Source: Eledone cirrhosa
Taxonomy: Eukaryota
NCBI GenBank assembly: GCA_964016885.1
Contig: OZ024741.1
Coordinates: 184,078,001-184,142,000 of the forward strand
Reading direction: 5' to 3'
DNA: 64,000 nt
The first letter of the stretch is position 1. Each line of letters starts with the position of its first letter. Below the pieces are notes generated by a model. The model saw only the letters and a program-made list of their open reading frames with translations. It had not been told where the DNA came from and ran no database searches. A program made the position numbers and the translations under genes. Shown here piece by piece: positions 2,518 through 43,819 of this stretch.

Positions 2518-4500
2518 TTACCTTACTTCTCGTAGGGGAAGGACGGTTTTTCCATCCTTTTCACTGCTTGTGGCCTCCTCAGGAAGGATGTCCTTATAAA
2601 TCCTCCTGGAGAGTGCTTGTCGGAAGTCTCCGATGTCTTTTGGGAATTTTTGTTTTAGTGTCATGTACGTTTTCTGTGTGATGCGAGTGATTTGTATGTG
2701 TGGAGGTGGTGTGAATTTTGGGGTTGTTGTGTAGTCTTTTTCTGTGATGCTGGTGTTGTGTTGGATGTAGTGTAATAATTGCTTGTTGTTCAAATTTAAT
2801 GCTGTGTAGTGTGTATCGTTTTGGTTGTTTTGTTTTGTTTGCGTTTGTTGTGGGTTTGTTTCTGTTTCGCATTTTGGTGACTTTTGTGGTGTAGGTGATG
2901 GTGGTGTTGGAGTTAATGATGGTGATGGTGTTGGTGTTTGGGTTGATGGGGTTGGTGATGCTGGTGTGGATGGTGGCATATCTGTCCTAACTTTTTTGTT
3001 TCTTAGTTTATTTGTTTCCCTCTGTGTTTTGTTTTGGAGGGAGAAGGAAGAGAATTTTTTCTTTTTTGGCTTCTTTTTTTTTTCCGGATATCGTTTCCCA
3101 CTCCTCGTCGTCACAATCTGTCTCCAGTTGTGATAGGCCGGGGAGTGGAAAATCCTCCACAGCCGTTAGTTTTGGTTGTGGTGTGGTGGATGGTGTAGGC
3201 GCTGGTGCTAGTTCTGAAGCGTTGGGTGGTGGTGGTGTTGGTTTTGCTGGTGGTGGTAGTGGTGTTGGTTTTGCTACTGTTGCTGGGGTTGTTGCTGTTA
3301 TAGTTGCTTCTGTTGTTGCTGCTACAGTTGTTGCTGCCATCTCTGCTACTGGTGGTGTTGATGGTTGTGTCACTGGGGTGGGTAGGAGAGGTGGCCTCAA
3401 CCTTTTAGCCTGAGGGCAGAAAGCCCTTAGGTGGGTTCCTTCTCCACAAACGACACACCTAGGTCTTCTGCCCTCGACAATTACCGTGAGGTGGCTGCCG
3501 TCAGTGAGGTCTATTACCTCTGGGATCTCCTCAATGCTTTTTTGGTCCGCTTGGATCAGGAGCTCCATCCCAGATCCGGACCAGTTTTCCTGCTTTTCTT
3601 TTGCTACTGCTATTATTTTCGTGTTGGCTTCGATGCCGGCGAGGACAGCCGCTATTAGCCAGGGAATTTCGATGGCCGGTGGAACGTGGGTCACCCTGAT
3701 CTTTACGAGTCTCTGGCCACAATAGCTTGGGACGAGTGTGAGGTCGTCACTTTTTAATGGGGCCATGGAGTGTTCTCTAGCCTCCTCTGGTGTTTCAAAG
3801 AACACATCCACGGTTCCATACTTTTGCCCACGTCTGATGTGGGTTTTTCTTGCCCACACATGTCCCAAAGCTTTTTGGATTTGGGACTCGGATGCCCGTT
3901 CCACTCGGCGCGATTTTACATTTATTGTTCTATACGACACGGTGCACAGGCGCCGATGCTCCATTTTATTAGGTGGGGGGGGGTGAGGCTGACCCTGTAC
4001 CCATCTTTCTTTACCATTTGTTTGGCATTTTCTAAATCTTCTTGAGTTACCGTGAACGCTTCGAATTGTTTTGCTACGATGGCGAAACTGAGGGTCGGTT
4101 TTATAATGTCATTGTTGTTGTTGTTGCTATCGTTAATATTAATTTTATTTTCAGTTGTGGTGGTGGTGACGTCAGTCGTCTTTGGTGGGGAAGAGTCCAT
4201 TTTGCTTGATTTCATTTCGACGTCACGAGTTAATTTATTTTTTTCTTCTTTTGTTTCTGTTGTCGCGGTGGTGGTGGTGGTGGTGGTTGTCGCGGTGGTG
4301 GTGGTGGAGGGTTTAACACCTGCAGTCATTGGTAATGGCGGGAAATGAATGTCTGCCTGAGACAAATTTAAAATATTGCTACTGCTTATATTTTTTTTTG
4401 TGTTGGCAAACGTAGTAACATTTACAATGGTGGTGTCGGTGTGAGGTGTTATTTTGTGAGGAAGGCTTTCAGCTGCTTCGTGCAGAGGGGAATTAGCCAT
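2518..4500 (-). pseudogene. Tx1 ORF1 (gag-like, CX2CX4HX4C knuckle, Pro/Thr linker), frameshifted at homopolymer runs
   Basis: ORFs 3922..4500, 3008..3964 (CVVCGEGTHLRAFC) and 2518..3114 overlap in sequence order, with breaks at a G run (~3975) and T runs (~3055-3082). Confidence 0.85.
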
Positions 4501-4827: not shown

Positions 4828-4972
4828 TACATTAATAACAATAATAATAATAATAATAATAATAACAACAATAATAATAACGACAACAACAATAATAATA
4901 TACATATACATATATATATAGACACACACGCACACACATAAGCGTATCTACACACACACACACACACGCACA
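4711..4972. repeat. Compound microsatellite (AAT)n/(TA)n/(CA)n
   Basis: Seen directly in the sequence. Confidence 0.95.
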
Positions 4973-4981
4973 CGATAGCAA

Positions 4982-6315
4982 CTAACAGCGCTGCGATCGA
5001 ATGTGGCTTTTTAGCCTAGCCAATGATCTAAAATGTCTTGCACAGAATCGGCAACCAAAACATTCACTGGGAATAGTCGGCTGTGGTTGGAGTTCGTGTA
5101 CTTTTGCATGTCGCTTGAGCCCTCCTGCTGATTTACATTCTCTACCACATGTTTGGCAAGCATGATGAGTAGCATCTCCAACAGCAGCCTGGTAGTCAAC
5201 CACTGGTCTTACTTTATGACTGCGAAGATGACTTTCGAGTCCAGCTTTGCTTAGGCAGAGTCTCGCACATACGCTGCATGTCAGCACCATAGGAGGACCC
5301 TCGCCGTCTGGAAGTGCAACAGCAATGCCCTTCCTCACATCCCGCTTTACTTTCTCGTATGCGATTCAAGATGCCTCAAAGGCAACTTTTCCCTCATATA
5401 CAGTCTTTCTCCATTTATTACGATCAGCAGCAATATTCTCCCATGTATCAGCAGAGATGTTAGCGTCTTTCAGAGAGGCTTTCAAGGAATCCTTATACCT
5501 CTTTTTTGGTTTATGTGGCAGTCGTTTTCCTTTAACCAACTCTCCATAAAAGAGTTGTTTTGGTATTCTAGAATCCTTCATCCTGGCAAGGTGACCACTC
5601 CAACGGAGTCGTTGCTTAAGCACAAGACCTTCTATACTGTGACACATAGAGCTTTCCAAAATCTCGACATCACTGATGTGGTCCCTCCAGTGAACGCCAT
5701 GGATCCGTCTGAGACACATCTGATGGAAACGCTCCAATTGCTTAAGGTGGTGTCGATATGTGACCCAGGTCTCGCAGGCATAAAGAAGACAAGAGAGCAC
5801 ACATGCCCTGTACACCTTTACCTTTGTCCTCCTGCATATGTCTCGCCGACCCCAGAGTCGTCTTTCTAGCTTTCCGAAAGCATCACTTGCTTTCCTAATC
5901 CTAAGTGAGATTTCACTGTCAAGGTTGCTGTATCGATTGACAGTGCTTCCCAGGTAGACAAACTGATCAACCACTCCAAGTCATTTGCCATACACATAGA
6001 TGTTTGGTTCAGTGTACTGCTTACCAGGGGCAGGTTGGTACATGACGACGGTTTTCTTGAGACTGACAGTCAGACCTAGGGCAGTGCAAGCGTCAGAAAA
6101 TGCATTCAAAATGTGCTGCATATCACTCTCTGTGTGCGCTACAAGATCGCAATCATCTGCATACAAGAGGTCTCTTATGATTGATGTAAACACTTTTGCC
6201 TTCGCAGCAAAGCGCCTGATGTTAAATATGCTGCCTGAGGTTCGATATCGGATGTAAACACCATGCTCGCAATTCCTGAATGCAATACAGAAAACCATTG
6301 CAAAGTATATGGCAA
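4982..6315 (-). mobile_element. RTE-clade LINE, 5'-truncated: RT C-terminal half plus three C2H2 zinc fingers
   Basis: LLYADDCDL, FVYLGS, TKVKVYRACVLSCLLYACETW, RLRWSGHLARM...PKQLFYGEL; fingers CSVC..H..H, CQTC..H..H and CRFC..H. Confidence 0.9.
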
Positions 6316-6361
6316 ACATACATACATACATACATACATACATACATACATACATAATACA

Positions 6362-6395
<34 letters not shown>

Positions 6396-6408
6396 CATAC
6401 ATACATAC
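6316..6408. repeat. (CATA)n tract; it reads as the (TATG)n tail of the RTE at 6409-9948
   Basis: Seen directly. It sits between the two RTE copies. Confidence 0.9.
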
Positions 6409-9400
6409 ATGGTGGCTGCAAACTCTGCTAAGAGTGTTGCAATCGCTTGTCAGATTCAGATGTATGGCGCTCAGTTATGGCTTTTCCAGCCTGCTAGAGA
6501 CTTAAATCTCCCTGGCCTGAGGTCTTGCATCAGGTTTCATGTGAACCCTCACAATACCGTGGAGATCATAATTCACTGGTTCTCTTTTAACATGGCTGCA
6601 ACTGTGGCTCCTGAGAACAGATTTGCTCAAGCAAATTGTTCCGCACTCAGGGCACTTCAATTTAATGGAGACACCGATCGTTTCAAGCGATACACCAGAG
6701 CATTGCTTATGCACATCCCGTTTGAGCTTCTCGTGCTCTATGCGCCTGTCCTCAAAATTATGGACCACATCATACACCATTCCACACCAAGTTTCTCTTT
6801 CAAGAGCTTCTCTCTCCCAGTCAGCCATCATCAAACCAGTTTTCTTCAGTACACATGCAGCATACACTCTCACCTTGGTCTTCATTGTGATTCCTCACCT
6901 GCACCAAAGACGGTCGCTGAGCCTTCCAAATGATTCATTTGCCTTACTAACACGTAGACCAACTTCTGCATCCAGAGAGCAGGTCACGCTCAGAGTACTC
7001 CCCAAATACACAAATGTGTCAGCAGCCTTCAGCTTTAGACCGTATACATATATGGAGGGATCATTGAAAACTTTATCCGGAGCAGGTTGGTACATGACGA
7101 CAGTCTTCTTCAGAGTGATTGCCAGTCCAAAAGCACTGCACGCATTGGAAAAAGAATCCATAAGGTGTTGCATGTCACTCTGGGAGTGTGTAAAGAGATC
7201 ACAATCATCTGCATACAGGAATTCATTGATCAAGGTACTCAGTACCTTAGCAGTAAGACGGCTGAGGTTAAACAGCTTGCCGGAAGTGCGATATCTGAGA
7301 TAGATACTTGACAATCCTTGAAGGTCATGAAGAACAGCATTGCGAAATACAAGGCAAACAAAGTTGGTGCAGGTATATCAACTTGCTTGATAGCATTTTC
7401 AACCGAGATTGGCTCAGACAGTTTACCTCCAATATTACCCATGCCTGCATCTCATCGTGGAAGAGTTTCAGTATGTTCACAAACTTTTCAGCACAGCCCA
7501 ATCCCTCCAAAATAACCCACAAAGCCTTCCGATTAACGGTGTCAAATGCCTTGGTCAGATCGGCAAAAACTTGGTATAAGTCCTTGTGCTGCTCAATGCA
7601 TTTCTCTTGAAGTTGTTTGGCCGAGAGGATCATGTGAACAGTGCCTCTGCCATTCCTAAATTCACATTGGGACTCAGGAAGTACCTCAACAGCAATGTGC
7701 TGTATCAATATGTCCAACAAAATCCTGCACAAGATCTTTCCAGCCACAGATAGCAGTGAAATACCTCTGTAGTTGCCACAATCATCTTCGGCTCCCTTTC
7801 CTTGTACCACCATCAATGCATCCTTCCAGTCCTGTGGTACATCTTCTTCATTCCAAATATACACAAAGAGATCAGTGAGGCGGTTTAAGAAGTTATCACC
7901 AGCACACTTGAATATCTCGGCACTCAGTCCATCCATTCCAGGTGACTCACCGCTGTTTAATTTCGCAATGGCCTTCGCCACCTCATCAAATGAAGGAAGA
8001 TCAGCGATTGCCAGCTTTGTAGGTCTGGATGGAATCGATCGGATGAACTCATCATCGATTTCTGATGGTCTGTTGAGGAGTTCATCAAAGTTATGTTACC
8101 TGATCAGGATTTCATTCGGATCTCTGAGCAATTCCTTGCCGTCCCTGGAGTGAAGTGGTGATATTTGTGAACCGGTTAGACCATACACCTCCCTGGGCAG
8201 ATTGTATAAGAGCTTTCTATCATGTCTATCTGAGACTTTCTGGATTTCATCAGCCTTTTGGCTCCACCAGGTATTCAGCATGGCTCTCAATCGATGTTGC
8301 ACACGTGCCTTGATCTGCTTGAAGATCCGGTCACTCCTGTCAGAACGTGTCTCACACAACAATGGTGTCAATACTTTTTGTTTCTCTTCACGCAAGATCT
8401 GGATTACTGCATCATTTTCATCGAACCAGTCTTTATGCTTTCTACTGGTATGACCTAAAACTCCAACACTAACACCATAGACGGTTTTCTTCAATGATTA
8501 CCACGTGTTTTCACATTCCATGGACTCAAGAGACTTCGACAGCTCTGCTATGACTTTTTTGTCTTCAGACGAGCCACGTTCAGTTGTTTTGGAAGTGCAA
8601 CATTCCCCCTCCCCCTTACTTTGGGCTTCACAACAAATTGAAATTTGGCGCGCACTAGACGATGTTCAGTCCAACATTTCGCACCTCACAATACACGAAC
8701 CAGTGTGTATCCCTAATATCACGTTTTCTCGTTAAAGCAAAGTCAATAAGGTACGACTTCTTGGAACCTGGATGCATCCAAGTTGTCTTATATTTGTCTT
8801 TCTGCTGAAAGAGCTTGTTCCCAACAACAAGATCCAACTCAGCGCACATCTGCAACAGAAGTAGGCCATTGTTATTGCACTTACCTACCCCATGCCTGCC
8901 CATCACACTCCAAGCTTCCCAGTCATTACCAACATGTGCATTAAAATCACCTAGGATGACAATCTTGTCTGCATAAGGTATACTATGGATGACCTCTTTC
9001 AAAGACATGTAAAAATCTAGTTTTTCTTCATCACTGGTACACATAGTAGGAGCGTACACACTGACCAGAGTCACAAAGCGGTTTTGAATAAGAGGGACTC
9101 TCATGGATATTATTCGATCATTGAATCCACAAGGAAGATTTTCCAGCTTTGAGACGTTTCCATTTCTGACAGCAAATGCGACACCTGCCTCTCTCTTACA
9201 ACATTCTACCAACCCAATAGAAGGTTTCTGAAAGAGCAACGATGTCCATGTTATAGCGATTGAGTTCCCTCGACATCAAAGCAGATCTTTCTTCGGGGCG
9301 AGTTTCACTGGATTGGGAATAAAGTAAAGTTCTTACATTTCAGCATCCAATATTCAGTGGCTGAACCTCTTTGCAGTTGCAGGATGACGACCGGGCCCAC

Positions 9401-20300: not shown

Positions 20301-22850
20301 GACTTACATTCTGGGTCCAGGAAGATGTGCCATATGGCGAGATCCAAGCCTCTCCGGAAAAGGACGGCAACCTCTCCTTCCGATCCTGGACAGCTGGGAG
20401 ATGCGTATACATGGTAGCCGCCGAAGATTGGGGCGAAGGCTCGTGTTTAGGAGATTCTGGTCTCGCTGATAGCTACCACATCTATGTTTAGTGACCTGAG
20501 GTCGTTGAGCAGGTGACCCTGCTTCCAAGATGACCCCAGGCCACGTGCATTTATACTGCCTATTCTAAGCACGGCCATGTTGGATGAGAAACGGGGCAAG
20601 TGAGAAAGGGTTACTTACCTTGATCGTGTGGTGAAGGGACAGTAGAACCGTCCCTTTGGCTGGTCATGGGGGTTTCCAAGAGGATGTCAGTGTATATCCT
20701 CTTGGTAACTGACACTCTGAAGTCTCCAACTGCGTTGGGGAATTTTTGTTTTAAAGGTTTGTGCTGTTCTATTAAGATTTCAATGATGCTTATGTTTGTC
20801 GGGAGAGTTCTTGGTGTTGGTGGGGTGTAGCAGTTTTTTTCTGTGATGTCTGTGTGCTGCTTTATATATTGTATGAGTTCTTTATTTGCCATATTTAGAG
20901 CTGTGTACTTTTGGGGGAGAAGGGTGATTTTGTTGCTGTTTTCTTCTTCTTGCTGTTTGGTGTGTGTGTTTTGTTGTGTTTGTGTTGTTGGTGTTTTTGA
21001 TGATGCTGGTGGTGGTGTGGTTGTTGTTGGCGGTGGTGCTTGTGGTGGTGTTGCTGAAAGTCTCCTTACAGCCTTTACCCCTCTTTGTGTGCTTTCGCTT
21101 TTGGAGGGTGAAGCTAAGGGTTTTTTTGTTTTTTGTTTGTTTTTGTGGCAGACTGTTTGCCACTTCACTCCCGCCTCAGACTCCATGTCGGATTCCGTGG
21201 CGTCTGGGAGGTGTATGTGCGTCACGGCTGTTGGTGGTGGTATTGGAGCCCTCTCCGGCGATTTTGTTGCTGGTGCAGCTACTGCAGATGTAGCTACTGG
21301 TGTTGCCGCCACTGATGCTGCTGCTTTAGTTGTCAGTGGCCTTGGTACGGGTGCCACGGACGTTGCCCTCCTACTCACCGTGGAAGGGGCTTCTGCGTTT
21401 GTTGCCTGCCCTACTCTTGGTAGTAGCGGACTAGGTATTGGAGAGGGGCCTTCTTCTTCACTGTCTTCTGCTAGAAAAAGGCACTGAGGTGACCCTTTGA
21501 CCCACAGAGATAAAATGTTGGCCGTCTTCCTTCCACGCTTATAGGGAGTTGGAGTCCTTCCTCGATGTCTATGATATCGGGGATAGCGTCGATACATTCC
21601 TGGTCAGTTTGTATAAGCATTTGCATGCCTATACCTGACCAGCTCTCTCTCCCTATTTTCTCTACTTGCAGCATGGTCGTCCTGTCCTCGATTCCGGCAA
21701 GGACAGACGCGGCCAGCCAAGTTATGGGCACCTCGGGTGGGACCTGGGTCACTTTGAACCTCACAATTTTCTGCCCGCGGTAGGAGGGTACCAAGACTAT
21801 CTCCTCACTCTTTAGGGTTTCCAAAGAGTGAAACTTCGCTTCTTGGGTGGCGGCGAAGAGTACGTCTACTGTGGCGTACTTTCTGCCTCGGGTGATGTGG
21901 GTTTTGTGTGCCCAGACGCACCCCAAGGCCTTTTGGATTTGAGCCTCCATGGCTCACTCCACCCGATGTGAAATTTTGCTTACGGTGCAGTAATTTACCG
22001 TCCGTAGCTGCTGGTCCTTGAAAACATCGGGTGGAGGTTTCAAGGAAACTCTATTGTCGTTTCTTGTCTCCATGGCCCTTGAGACTGTCATCTCCTCCTC
22101 TGTGACTAACACTGTCTCGATATTTCGGGCGACACCTGCAAAAGAGGTGATCCCTTTTTCAGCAGCACCACTATTGCTGCCGCTACTGGTCTTGCTGGTG
22201 GTGCTGAGATCGCTGTTACAGGTATCGATGTCATTGTTGATGTTTTCGTTGGTACTGTTATTGTTGTTGCTGTTGTTGTTTTCGTTGATACTGTTGCTGT
22301 TGTTACTGTTATTGTGGCTGTTGTTATTATTGTTGTTGTGGCTGTTGTTATTGTCATTGTTATTGTCGTTCTCGACCTTACCGCTGTTATTTTTGTTGTT
22401 GCTGTTGTTATTGATGGTGTTGTTGTTTGTGTTATTGTTGGTGTTGTTTGTGTTCGATATATTTGGTAATTTTAAATCTGTAACAATATCATTAAAAATG
22501 CTATTGTTCTTCTTTTCCTTCGTAATATTTTCTTTTAAAATTACTTTGGCTAGAACGCTGTCTTGTTGATATGTTGACAAAGTCTCCCTCTCTCTGTGTC
22601 GTCTGACAGCGCTCTCTCTCTTTCTTGTGTTTTCCATGTTGAAAGACTTTTTTTTTCAAATAATACTTTTACACAATACGACACCCCGTAAAGGGGTGCC
22701 GTATTATTTACGAGTGAACCCCTGTATTAGGTGGGTCACTTCTAAACTTTTATCAAGTTTAAAACTTGAATAAAAGGTTTAGAACGGTTGAAAACGAGGT
22801 AAACTGTTGAAAAAAACTGGAGGCGATAAGAAGCGTATCTTCACCTTCAA
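17362..22850 (-). mobile_element. Tx1 family C, full-length, decayed
   Basis: ORF1 pieces 21954..22637 (Asn-rich), 21471..21950 and 20611..21597. ORF2 runs from ATG 20578 (MAVLRIGSINARG) to 17645 with stops and deletions. (ATT)n at both ends. Confidence 0.92.
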
Positions 22851-37960: not shown

Positions 37961-37979
37961 GGTTATTATTATTATTATT

Positions 37980-40900
37980 GAATGCCATGGTTGACGGAGG
38001 CTCGGCTCTGTAAGGTATAGTCAGGTTTAACCGCTATAACAATTGTAAATTGTTTAAAACTTGAATGAAATTGTAGATAAAAACACCCACCTCCTCGTGA
38101 GAGGGGTCTTTCTGCCCGCTATTTGGCACTTCGGGGTTAAATATCTGCTTATTGGGGTTTTGTGCCCAATATTCATTTTAAACCGTAAAAAAAACATGGC
38201 TGCAAAAAATAATTTTCATAAGTCACTCCCACTCATTCTGTCTTCTTCTTCCTCAATCGTCATTACATCAGAGAGAAGATTGTCTCTCTCCCTCCCTTCT
38301 CTAAATGTGGTGTCGCCTCTTTCGCAAGCGACGCCATTAAATAAAAATAAAAATATAGTTTCTGGTAGATTTCACCAAGAGAACGTGCATACCGTGAAAC
38401 ATTTCTCCACGACGACGACAACGACGAAAAATGTGTGCGGTAAAGACGGAAAGCCATTTTATTCGTCTGACGTCATGGAGAATAGCAGCAGCAGCCGTAA
38501 TAACAGCAGCAGCAGCAACAGTGACAAGGAAAACACTAGTAGCAGCCGCAACAACATCAGCAGCATAAACAACAACAGCAACAACAACAGCAGCAGCAGC
38601 AGCAACAAAATCAAAAACCACAGCAACCACAGCAACAGCGGCGGCGGCGGCGGCGGCGGTGGTCATAGTACCAGCAGCAACAACAAAAGTAACAGCAGCT
38701 CTGACGACAACAACAACAACAAGAAGAAAGAAAAAACAATCTCGTTTGCAGGTATCGCAAAGAACCTGGAAACCATCCTTATAACAAATGAGGAATTACA
38801 GGAAGCAAAGAAGATGGTGACGAAAACCGGACAGCGAGCAATCTGTAAGGTAGCCGAAAAATATTTCGAAACCCAACAGCACTGTACGCTCACGTACCGT
38901 ACAGTAAGCACCAAATCACGTAGGGTTGAAAGAGCGACAGGGGCTCAAATACAAAATGCCTTAGCGTCTGTGTGGCAGCGGAAAACGCATATCACCCAAG
39001 GCAAGAAATATGCCATCGTGGACGTGCTTTTTGCCACACCCCAGGAGGCAAAGGCTCAATCCTTAGTGACCCTAAGGAGCGAGGAAATTGTATTGGTGCC
39101 CTCCTACTGCGGGCAAAAATTGTGAGAGTCAAACTGACCCACGTCCCCCCGGGATGTCCCCTTCTTGGCTGGCCGAGTCTGTCCTTGTCGGAATCGAGGA
39201 CAAAACAACTGTACTGCAAGTACAGAAAAAAGTACGAGAAGATTGGGTAGGCACCTCTATTGAGATGTTAATTCAAACCAACCAGGAGTGCATCGAAGCT
39301 ATCCCGGATGTGATAGACTTCGATAACGGCACTCAACTGCCCATAAGTGTTGAGGGCAAACGCCCGAAATGCTTTCCCTGTGGGTCGAATACTCACCGTA
39401 GGGCCTTCTGCAATGAGAAGACCCTGATAAAGGAGAAAACCACCTCCTTCCGAAACCGGCTCCACTGCTACCAGCAACAGGACAGGCGGCAAGCAGGAAG
39501 GATAGGTCCGTGGCACCCATACCCACGCCCCGGAAATCAAGAACAGCAGCAGCAGTGGATGTAATAACAATAACAACAGTAATACCAACTGCAGTTGCAA
39601 CAGAGACTCCACTGCAACCATCACCAACAAGAACAAGTGAAAGAGTGGAGCTCGTACCCCTCCCCGACCTCACGGAATCGGACATGGAGTGTGAGGTGGG
39701 AGAGGGATTGCAAAAGGTCGCAAGAAGGCACAAACGCAGAAGCAGCACATCGTCGCCTTCGAAAAGGGAGGGAAGAAATGAAAAAAGGGTAAAGGCTACT
39801 GCAAAGAGACATACAGCAGCAACACCACTAACATCATCACCACCCACACTAGCATCACCATCACCACCGGCGACAACCCCACCGCCAACAACAACAACAC
39901 TTTCAACAGCACCACCACAAGCACCAACATCGCAAACACAACAACAAAACACCCACACCCAGCAACAATGACAAGAAAATAGCAGAACTACACCCCACCC
40001 CCAGAAAAAGAAATGCACAGCAATAAATACACACAAGAAACTAATGACTTACTTAATTGAACACACAGACATTTCACAGCACGACTACATAATACCAGCA
40101 CCAATCAAAACACCAACGAACTGGTAAGAATAGCACAGAAACAATACACAAACATTGAAATAAAATTCCCCAACGCAGTTGGTGATTTCAGAGACCTAGG
40201 AGGGACACTCAATCGGCGAGTATGTTCGAATATACTCACAGAAGAGATGACGACCAGCCGAAGGGACGATTCAACGATGCCTTCAACAGAAGATCAAGTG
40301 GAAAGGGATGGAGAAACCATCCTTCCTCTACGAGAAGTAAGGTAACTGGTCTTTCCCATCTTTTCCACTCCATTTCAACATGACCTCACTCAAAATAGGC
40401 AGCATAAATGCGCGTGGCTTGGGGTCGTCATGGAAGCAGGGCCACTTGTTCAACGAACTCAGGTCACTAAACATAGATGTAGTGACCATCAGCGAGACCA
40501 GAATCTCCGAAGCACCGGCCTTCGCACCGATCTTCGGCGGCTACGATGTGTACGCATCTCCCTGCCGTCCTGGATCAGGGGGTGGAGTTGCTGTGCTTTT
40601 TCGGAGAGGTTTGGATCTCGCTATACGGGCGATCTTCCTGGAACCAGAAGGTAAGTTGGTGGTGCTGGACGTGACCAGCGGAGACGGGCAAGCTTTCAGG
40701 CTAGTGGCCGTCTATGCCCCGACAGGAGCAGGGCGGCCTGATTTTTTCCGTCATCTGGAGACCTTTCTATGAACGTTCCGCTCTTTAGTGTTAGTGGGCG
40801 ACTGGAACGGGATCTTAGATGCACGCTAGGACTGTGTGGGATTAGCGGATAGGCGAGGAGGGTGCAAGAGCCTCACCAACCTGCTCAGGCGTTTTGAACT

Positions 40901-43807
40901 GTCTGACAGGTACCGATTGGATTTCCCGAATGTGCCAATGTGGACTTGGACAAACCGTATCGGGTCATCCAGATCATATCTAGATAAAGTATTTTGTAGG
41001 GAAATAGATAGGTCTAGCATAGGCTGCCACAATTCAAGATAGTCAGCTACGCGGACCACAAATTCGTGATCTGTATGCTTGACTTAGATAGGCTTCATAG
41101 ACGAGGACCCGGCTACTGGAAGCTAAACGCGTCCTTCCCCGTGCGCAAGGCCTACAGAGACCGGATTAACGAACTAGTTAAGCGAGCGTTGACGGGGGCC
41201 ATAGTCAACAAGAAGTGGTGGTTTGCTCTGAAAAGAGCTATTAGAATAGAGTCCATTAGGTTTAGTAAGGCTTTAGCTCTAGAGAAAAATAGAGTAGAGG
41301 GAGAACTAGTTAAAAAATTAGACGAGGCGCTTAGCAAAGGCATCGCGACCGACGTACTTGCGGCGAAATTGGCCCTTGACCAATTCTTCAATGCAAAGCA
41401 CGAAGGCTGCGTTGTCAGAGCTAGGGTGCGTGCTCTCAGACACGAGGGGACGAAAGCCGTTCAATGGGCCCGAGTGGCGGAGGCGCGTCGTGGCAACAAA
41501 GCCTCGATCCGGTCTTTGGTGGACCACGACGGGCGCATGCTACTCGATCCCGGGAAAATGTGTGAAGCTTTTCAGCGACACTTCGTTCAGCTGTTCGGGG
41601 GCAGCGGCGGGCCGGGTCGAGGGATGGACTTTGGTGTCTACCTCGACGGACTGCCACGGGTCTCGGCCACTGAGGCGGAGTGTTGCGAAAATCCGATAAC
41701 AGCCGCTGAAGTACGGGAGGCAATGACTGGCTGCACAAGGGGTAAATCGCCTGGTTTGTATGGTCTGCCCTATGAACTTTACGTACAGATGCCAGACTTG
41801 TTCGGAGGCCTCTTGGCGGACGTCTATTGCAACTGGCAACAGAACGGGAGAATTCCCAGCTCTGTGAGCCGAGGAGCAGTGGCGCTGTAGAGAAAGGATC
41901 CGAACAAGTGGGATAACATAGATAATTTCAGGCCCATAACTCTGATAAACACAGAGTTCAAGATTTTGGCCAAGGTGCTAGCAAAGAGGTTGGCACTTGT
42001 CGTCGGTGGTCTGGTAGGAGAGGCGCAGACATGCGCCATTCCCGATAGATCCTTCCACGACAACCTCATGTGATACGTAGTAGAGACGGTAGCTAGGGAA
42101 CCTGGCACGGGTGGGTCCTTGATCAATTTAGATCAGTCGAAAGCTTTCGATAGCGGCAGTCCTGAAGGCGGCTGGCTTTGGGCCCGTCTTCGGAGGCTGA
42201 ATCGCTGACATGCACAGCGACATCTGCTCTGTGGTGAGAGTGAACGGTCACCTTTCTGAACCGTGCAACATCATGTACTCGGTCCGCCAAGGATGTCCCC
42301 TCTCGTCCCTCTTGTACGTATTAAGTCTCGAGCCATTACTGCACAAACTGGAGACGTTGAGGGGGTTCCCGCGCGAACTAGGATGCGAAAGATCCGTGTC
42401 AGCATATGCGGACGATGTCACCGTAGTGGTGTCGAACGCCAAATACATCGAGGCGATCGGCACTACACTAAGATAATAAGAAGCGGTGACAGGACTAATG
42501 ATCAACCACGAAAGGTCAGTGGGCCTGCAGCTCGGCACCTGGAGAGGCAGGTCCATGCTGTCCAACAGCTTCGTCGGGCGCTGGGCGGACGGACCGGTTA
42601 AATTGCTAGGGGCCTGGTTCGGTCCCGACCTCCAGACGGACAAAAACTGGGACGAGGTGACGAGCAGGGTGGCTTCTCTGACCCAGAAATGGGCGGAGCG
42701 GAAGCTATCCCTGGTCCGATGGTCAGGCGGTCCATCTACTGTCAACACCCGCTACGTGGAGGGCTGGGCATGCCGTGGCTGATGATGCGCAGACACGCGC
42801 TCAGGTTACGACATCTCCACCTCCTCCTCGATGGTGTTCAGGTGTGGTCGCCGTTTGCTAGAAGCGTCTTTCCCCAGCTCGTCTCCTTGACGGAGCTGCA
42901 GTCCTGGGTCAAGCGAAGACTGAGAGGGAGCGCTTGGAGTCTGGAATGTCTTCAGGCGCTCACAGCCTTCGACCAATCTGGCAATGTGATCTGTGGAAAC
43001 TCCACCTCGGCGTTCTATAGAGGATTGGTGGAGGGGTAGAGCGACGACGTACTTGGGGAAACTAGGTCTCGACGAAAATCAACTAGCTAATCTCTTTGGA
43101 AGAACTTTCTGGCCGGGGCCTATGGACAACTTCCAGAAATCCCTGGCCTGGCAGTGCTACCGAGGAGCTTTGCCAGTTCGGCATAAACTCTACAGGCATG
43201 GAGGTGCTGTCAGCCGGGCATGTCCGAGATGCGCGCAGCGCGACGAAACCGTCCTGCACGCACTCGTTCAATGTCCGAGCATTGCAGACTTGTGGGTTTA
43301 TGTCGAAGACCTGCTGTCGCGTGTAGGTCGGATCCGGCTATCAGCTGAGTCCATCGTGAGGATTGCCCCGCCCTCTTCCTTTAGCCGGGAAGGGCAGGCA
43401 GTTTTTATCTGTTTGGTGGCCATGGCGAAAGAGATAGTATGGTGGACACGTTTGAAAAAGCTGAAGACGAGCACTTACCTCTTCGGTGATGCCCTGATTA
43501 ACTTTTTCAAATTTCATTTGAAAAGGAAAATCAGGGTAGAGAGGGAAGTGGTCTCTTCTCAGCATGGAAAACTGGGAGAGGGCACTTGCCCTGGTGGTCA
43601 GGGTCACTGTGGCCTTTTAATGGGCTTTCTCCACAAATGTCCCTCGGAAGTCTCCCCCCTATTGGGGAATTTTCCATTGTTACTTTTTGTTACATCCTCT
43701 GTTTTTGTTTTTTTACACGCAGAAATGCCCATTTGTACCGTCCTGTATTGTCCTGTACTGTCCTTAATATCTACTTTATGTAAACCCTTGTGGTTAATAA
43801 AGAAAGT
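37980..43807 (+). mobile_element. Full-length chimeric Tx1 element: C-like ORF1 joined to family A ORF1 tail, ORF2 and 3'UTR; decayed
   Basis: ORF1 from ATG 38196 (knuckle CFPCGSNTHRRAFC; LPDLTESDMECEVG as in family C) to TAA 40343-40345. ORF2 from 40380 (MTSLKIGSINARG) is near-identical to A1. Confidence 0.9.
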
Positions 43808-43819
43808 ATTATTATTAAT

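Follow-up and report, generated by a model that had tools for sequence, protein, structure and literature searches.

A two-parent LINE family in Eledone cirrhosa joined at a splice donor position

The chimeric element and its junction

The 64,000-nt stretch of Eledone cirrhosa DNA analysed here (contig OZ024741.1 of a 3.0-Gb genome, positions 184,078,001 to 184,142,000 of the forward strand; the whole stretch is called the window) contained several related long interspersed nuclear elements (LINEs) with two open reading frames (ORFs). One of them, the window copy of a family designated X, was composed of parts of two other LINE families. A sequence-only reading of this DNA had reported that its ORF1 ended with two C-termini in frame within 40240..40380, with a junction at 40298/40299 that fell at a splice donor. 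Both features were confirmed when the window sequence was read again. The ORF1 C-terminus was TTSRRDDSTMPSTEDQ-VERDGETILPLREVR, followed by the stop codon TAA (40343-40345), and GATCAAG (40292-40298) was directly followed by TGGAAAGGGATGG. The junction pattern had 2,180 exact matches genome-wide and the reversed control had none, and X is a whole family of thousands of copies, not a single copy.

The window copy C1 read GATCAAG:GTAAGT (20619/20618, minus strand) and the window copy A1 read GCAG:TGAAAAGGATGG (2564/2563, minus strand). Similarity to A1 began at 40301 and extended over 2,440 nt with 93.4% identity. The 1-nt offset against A that had been reported at the junction was real, and it was located as an additional G in a GG run 7 nt past the junction. 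The TGG of the window copy was a variant, with TGAAAAGGG present in 99 of the first 100 junction matches listed.

Table 1. Positions of the chimeric element, its parts and the compared copies in the window.
Feature	Position	Strand	Remark
Chimeric family X copy, full-length but decayed	37980..43817	+	L1/Tx1-type LINE flanked by (ATT)n run and AATAAA-(ATT)n tail
Target run (ATT)n at 5' end of X copy	37964..37979	+	
P-derived module: 5' untranslated region (UTR; putative promoter) and ORF1 (ATG 38196, frameshifted in window copy)	37980..40298	+	P identity, tree
First tail unit, P type, 41 nt, ending GATCAAG	40258..40298	+	P copies go on with GTAAGTGA at its end
Junction: P donor AAG:GT fused to A' acceptor CAG:TG	40298..40299	+	Microhomology AG, 2 nt
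Second tail unit (A' type), 42 nt with an additional G in run 40305-40307	40299..40341	+	ORF1 frame of A kept
A'-type donor, followed by pyrimidine-rich spacer	40342..40379	+	GTAACT in window copy, GTAAGT in family; overlaps ORF1 stop TAA 40343-40345
A'-derived ORF2 (apurinic endonuclease (APE), reverse transcriptase (RT), zinc finger)	40380..43564	+	In window copy: stops, deletions of ~133 and ~81 nt
CAG acceptor position, window copy A1 (young A subfamily)	2564..2566	-	
Donor GATCAAG:GTAAGT, window copy C1 (sister family of true parent P)	20613..20625	-	

The domain content was examined in an intact relative of X, L244, which had an ORF1 of 707 aa and an ORF2 of 1139 aa. Its ORF2 matched the Pfam domains Exo_endo_phos, RVT_1 and zf-RVT above the cut-off, and the best PDB matches of the endonuclease were L1 endonucleases. 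Of the RRM and CCHC knuckle that characterise a type I ORF1, the knuckle was visible as a CX2CX4HX4C motif; no ORF1 domain was found by Pfam, and the Atlas look-alikes of ORF1 were zf-CCHC/ZCCHC3 RBD (0.88-0.93). Most full-length X, P and A copies in 19 fetched regions had (ATT)n at their ends, and the elements formed mixed head-to-tail arrays. An assignment to the L1/Tx1 type, made by domains and target specificity, fits these data. None of the 52 homologues found carries a Tx1 name; the one close match with a name was a short segment of an Octopus protein, and the SINEs next to the LINEs resemble those of octopuses.

A second AAG:GTAAGT was located about 310 nt into ORF2 and was common to A, X and P (window 40649, and 2214 on the minus strand), and an antisense AG:GTAAGT was located near the end of ORF2 (window 43480). 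Further LINE remnants with RT-like ORFs on the minus strand were present upstream of A1 (window 4950-9300), with ends rich in microsatellite.

Parent families and expansion of X

The sequence-only reading had called the upstream part C-like. Family C was not the upstream parent, as it matched a young X copy upstream of the junction with an identity of only 58-75% per 200-nt window. The true parent was the sister family P, which was absent from the window itself. When the 149 nt preceding the junction were used as a query, 1,188 candidates were obtained, of which 40 were scored and 30 fetched. Besides the window itself, 27 of the 29 fetched copies were the chimera, and the other two ran on as GTAAGTGATCC into a different ORF2, that of P. 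Family P had the same promoter region and ORF1 as X, followed by GATCAAG:GTAAG and its own ORF2, as had been predicted for a parental family. The exact P-type donor pattern had 72 matches, all of which were examined; 69 were P and three were C, and the own spacer was kept in all.

The A variants predicted to carry AG at the junction were also found. They belonged to an older subfamily, A', with the pattern CAG:TGAAAAGG (446 matches genome-wide). The first 100 matches listed comprised 96 plainly A'-like copies, two X copies without the extra G, one A' mutant and one deleted X. All 30 fetched loci with this pattern were A', and CAG stood right before the first shared base in a large majority. 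X outnumbered both parents (2,180 pattern matches, compared with 72 for P and 446 for A'); each of these exact-pattern numbers is a minimum, and the patterns are unequal in length.

The identity changed sides at the junction. The window copy matched a P copy with 88-94% identity in 11 of 11 windows upstream of the junction and 76-86% downstream, whereas in the scored windows it matched A' with 61-69% upstream and 92-98% downstream. The downstream part had been described as near-identical to A1; it does belong to the A family, but its parent is the older A' subfamily. Trees of 38 rows, which excluded one P row (truncated ORF2), one A row and two B rows (ORF1 tree only), were in conflict as the sequence-only reading had predicted. 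On ORF1, X joined P (100/100) and formed a single clade (97/92), and on ORF2, X joined A (100/100). The approximately unbiased (AU) test with 17 selected elements out of 40 rejected X+P on ORF2 (p-AU 2e-5) and X+A on ORF1 (4e-7).

The tails of P and A are homologous, and X therefore holds the 42-nt unit twice, one from each parent. Because of this homology the two units resemble a 42-nt repeat, as an internal tandem duplication of the ORF1 end inside one family would leave. This origin is extremely improbable and was ruled out by the existence of both parents: unit 1 equalled the P sequence and unit 2 the A' sequence, and the entire 5' part grouped with P and the 3' part with A, with the AU rejections given above.

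Across 1,450 nt, X differed from the A' majority by the extra G and by one site that was polymorphic inside X. Six upstream sites differed between X and the P majority, and single P copies carried these X alleles stepwise, from which X derives from late P. The masters of the two parents were about equal in age (median 3-4% from the majority). The sequence comparisons thus assign X a single origin, from a late P master and an A' master. X expanded afterwards far beyond P, and the younger X subfamilies had both ORFs open and short branches.

The ORF1 stop was located in or just after GTAAGT in A, P, C and B. A young X subfamily (L225-L230 and L244) had a weaker donor context, CG:GTAAGT, and one additional spacer base. 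In the same copies the ORF2 frame was open for 56-65 codons before its ATG and overlapped ORF1, and a canonical slippery site was not seen in them. Five X copies were consecutive at L225-L228, and the downstream flank was identical for two of them, which suggests local duplication alongside repeated insertion. At L146-L148, a tandemly duplicated P/B hybrid unit (5' part P, 3' end B-type) alternated with X.

Splicing and other routes to the junction

X is a hybrid of P and A', likely made once by a spliceosomal join, to which we give a probability of about 0.55 from the sequence data. P and A' were co-active ATT-targeting LINE families, P contributing the promoter region and ORF1, and A' contributing the ORF1 tail, the spacer and ORF2. 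The spliceosome would have joined the donor at the ORF1 end of P to a CAG that served as a cryptic acceptor in the RNA of A'. The precursor may have been a transcript running past the poly(A) signal of P into the next A' copy, from which about 5.8 kb was spliced out, or else two transcripts spliced in trans. Read-through and trans-splicing give identical sequence and are indistinguishable here; of the earlier proposal that ORF1 was swapped by splicing of array read-through RNA, the splicing is favoured and the read-through is one of two equivalent forms. One G would have been gained at or right after reverse transcription, by which the ORF1 frame of A would be restored and the stop of X would overlap the donor again, and the product would have been retrotransposed as a new master element. 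The restored overlap of stop and donor hints at selection.

The head-to-tail substrate expected by the sequence-only reading was found in two fetched arrays, in which a P copy was followed by (ATT)n and directly by the 5' end of A. A substrate for read-through is therefore real. The last base that X shared with P was the exact exon end of the consensus donor, a position supported by 69 of the 72 pattern matches. The junction was a GT..AG join at a perfect donor, with AG as the sole letters in common. Around the ORF1 end, the possible joins of P and A' that share 2 nt or more of microhomology numbered 539, 1,934 and 6,898 in windows of three sizes, and 10, 16 and 24 of these, respectively, were of the donor..AG type, a share of 0.35-1.9% depending on the size. 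On the acceptor side, two of the ten AG sites from 64 nt before the A' donor up to it were YAG, and the used CAG was the last of these, with the donor of A itself 42 nt downstream. Exon definition favours an acceptor close upstream of a donor. The used CAG would thus be a favoured choice under exon definition, and it may have been chosen for this reason.

An ordinary microhomology join without splicing is a possible but somewhat doubtful origin. A 5'-truncated A' cDNA primed at the (ATT)n tail of P could have become attached farther upstream in P, whose ORF2 was thereby lost, or RT template switching or a DNA deletion could have occurred within a P-A' array. The donor position would then reflect coincidence together with selection for a complete ORF1, while the additional G would be a junction error, there from the start. 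Joins of this kind were abundant, as 88 distinct internal joins were present in the fetched copies, mostly with 0-2 nt of microhomology. Only one of the 88 was GT..AG, and none began at GTRAG, a background that speaks for splicing at the X junction. A single-copy P/A' join out of register led from about 520 nt into the ORF2 of P to the A' spacer, off the donor (L137:7020-7120), and P/B and P/C hybrids exist. Truncated insertion has been proposed as a route of ORF1 shuffling (PMC4120745), and chimeric L1 of a kind like synthesis-dependent strand annealing (SDSA) has been mentioned (PMC8087252). This origin would nevertheless require the 0.35-1.9% coincidence. It would also have passed over nearby longer microhomologies of 10 nt (in register, donor to donor) and 11 nt (further upstream), and have used a CAG with a 2-nt match instead of several AAG sites with at least 3 nt. 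The form expected from a 5-nt AGTGA microhomology five bases off had no match in the genome. An intermediate of such an AGTGA join was rejected on this count, and three matches to GTAAGTGA(A/G) were C variants.

Several points weigh against the spliceosomal join. The pyrimidine tract of the acceptor was poor (8 of 20 nt). Exact splicing yields no extra G and would put ORF1 out of the frame of A, which the extra G in X restores. A clean spliced intermediate without this G has not survived. Six X copies without it (five and a sixth) carried X alleles and look like later losses, because their marks were shared with different X subfamilies; the allele counts scattered them among these subfamilies, and they were rejected as ancestral intermediates. 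The short-microhomology joins were very common (69 of the 88 events with 0-2 nt), so that a non-splice join has a high prior probability. Any junction would also be drawn toward the ORF1 end by viability, and the donor pattern was recognised post hoc. Four exclusion searches, each of which covered roughly half to three quarters of the possible other joins, with the B donor and unknown families outside, gave no second donor-derived chimera: past the P donor (13 matches), past the A-type donor (10 matches), ahead of the A acceptor (33 matches, 30 examined) and past the C donor (3 matches).

Contigs of four further runs (X1, X4, X5 and X6) were compared with a P..A stretch, and those of X4 and X6 contained this join, extra base included. 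These contigs were not counted as independent lineages, being close to the present genome (20 differences in a 2,370-nt contig of X6), and no joint at donors was found among the matches listed.

A third route, a spliceosome-assisted template jump, is improbable. P RNA cleaved at the donor in the first splicing step would end with ...CAAG, and an RT on A' RNA could jump to it, pair AG and add the nearby G. This would account for the exact donor position, for an AG in A' at the join although the acceptor is weak, and for an error near the join. It depends on putative free 5' exons, and pairing by microhomology would prefer the AAG sites over CAG.

Recurrence and published systems

The sequence-only reading had extended the spliceosomal join to a built-in module-shuffling system. 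All matches examined in the four exclusion searches proved to be local mutants, members of the families or X itself, apart from L100 (also L300), an X-lineage copy that carried all six X alleles and in which the P exon end ran directly into TAAG from the tail of A'. Its sequence is ambiguous, as a 4-nt microhomology deletion fits as well as a second acceptor. Two further candidates were rejected. An ORF1-ORF2 fusion through a 52-nt intron would be in frame in A, not in P or C, and was absent among the 10 A-donor matches. An A element (L135:880-1080) that ran from 80 nt of the 5' UTR into ORF2, with 2.9 kb missing, was not a GT..AG join.

Families P and C were about 30% apart in the 5' UTR and ORF1. 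Past the donor they differed at 45 sites within the first 391 nt, and then at none up to +1,264 (L061-L090 compared with L195-L224; the ORF2 majority was identical from +392). The first 300 nt of the ORF2 of C were nearer to A'. By these comparisons P/C is another swap at the family level, located in register within the endonuclease part of ORF2 and off the donor, and it weighs against a built-in system. Other chimeras, namely P/C and 87 of the 88 single-copy joins, thus had junctions unrelated to GT..AG, and the system is therefore unsupported. Module exchange among these families is common and mostly follows homologous or microhomologous routes, and X is a one-off event, with a recurring system not demonstrated.

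Tx1 elements that target microsatellites include Kibi, Koshi, Keno and Tx1-Mar (PMC4494074), the Tx1 type of ORF1 has been described (PMC5203782), and recent activity in an octopus is listed for L1-Tx1 families (PMC13282606). X resembles the Tx1-clade LINEs (PMC4494074) in its two ORFs, APE-RT-zinc finger ORF2, CCHC-bearing ORF1, microsatellite target and tandem arrays, and differs in its target, (ATT)n. Spliced integrated retrotransposed elements (SpIREs) are L1 copies with intra-element deletions, described as dead ends (PMC5860796). Like SpIREs, X was retrotransposed and has a junction that agrees with a donor and an acceptor, GT and AG both being present. In contrast to SpIREs, which are spliced within one element, X fuses two families, retains both ORFs and outnumbers its parents. 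With 2,180 matches and young copies in which both ORFs are open, X is not a dead end.

A precedent for the spliceosomal join is given by host exons that end at donors and were spliced, in cis or trans, to L1 acceptors and retrotransposed, such as RAP1GDS1/L1PA2 (PMC11838501). There, as in X, the 5' partner stops exactly at the donor, and an acceptor in a LINE follows it. These chimeras carry a host exon and have few copies, whereas X carries the promoter region and whole ORF1 of another LINE and founded a large family. The same source speculates that mRNA/L1 chimeras drive the exchange of L1 5' ends. Reticulate acquisition of ORF1 was reported from deep trees of Jockey/CR1/L2 LINEs, with recombination or truncated insertion proposed and splicing unmentioned in the text (PMC4120745). 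The ORF1 and ORF2 histories differ there as in X, for which both parents and a base-exact junction are present in one genome. A literature search, with most subscription papers, Repbase, Dfam and supplements outside its scope, found no report of two LINE families giving rise to an autonomous third one through a donor-acceptor join.

A broader reading is unlikely on the sequence data, namely that the donor at the ORF1 stop of A, B, C and P would be a working splice site and that read-through splicing between (ATT)n-nested LINEs would amount to exon shuffling. A promoter-plus-ORF1 exon would be placed on the ORF2 of a neighbour, and selection, by way of the extra G, would rebuild an ORF1 that traverses the donor. 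If this were true, X would be the first case in which both parents and the splice junction are kept, and X would have replaced its ORF1 parent.

Promoter and ORF1 swaps of LINEs are usually inferred from trees, with the parents and the junction gone and the mechanism speculative (PMC4120745, PMC11838501). X has both parents, the exact join and a very successful daughter family in a single genome, so that the question of mechanism becomes testable. Should X be a product of splicing, a spliced retrotransposon would not have to be a dead end, and template switching would be joined by splicing as a founder route for autonomous LINE families.
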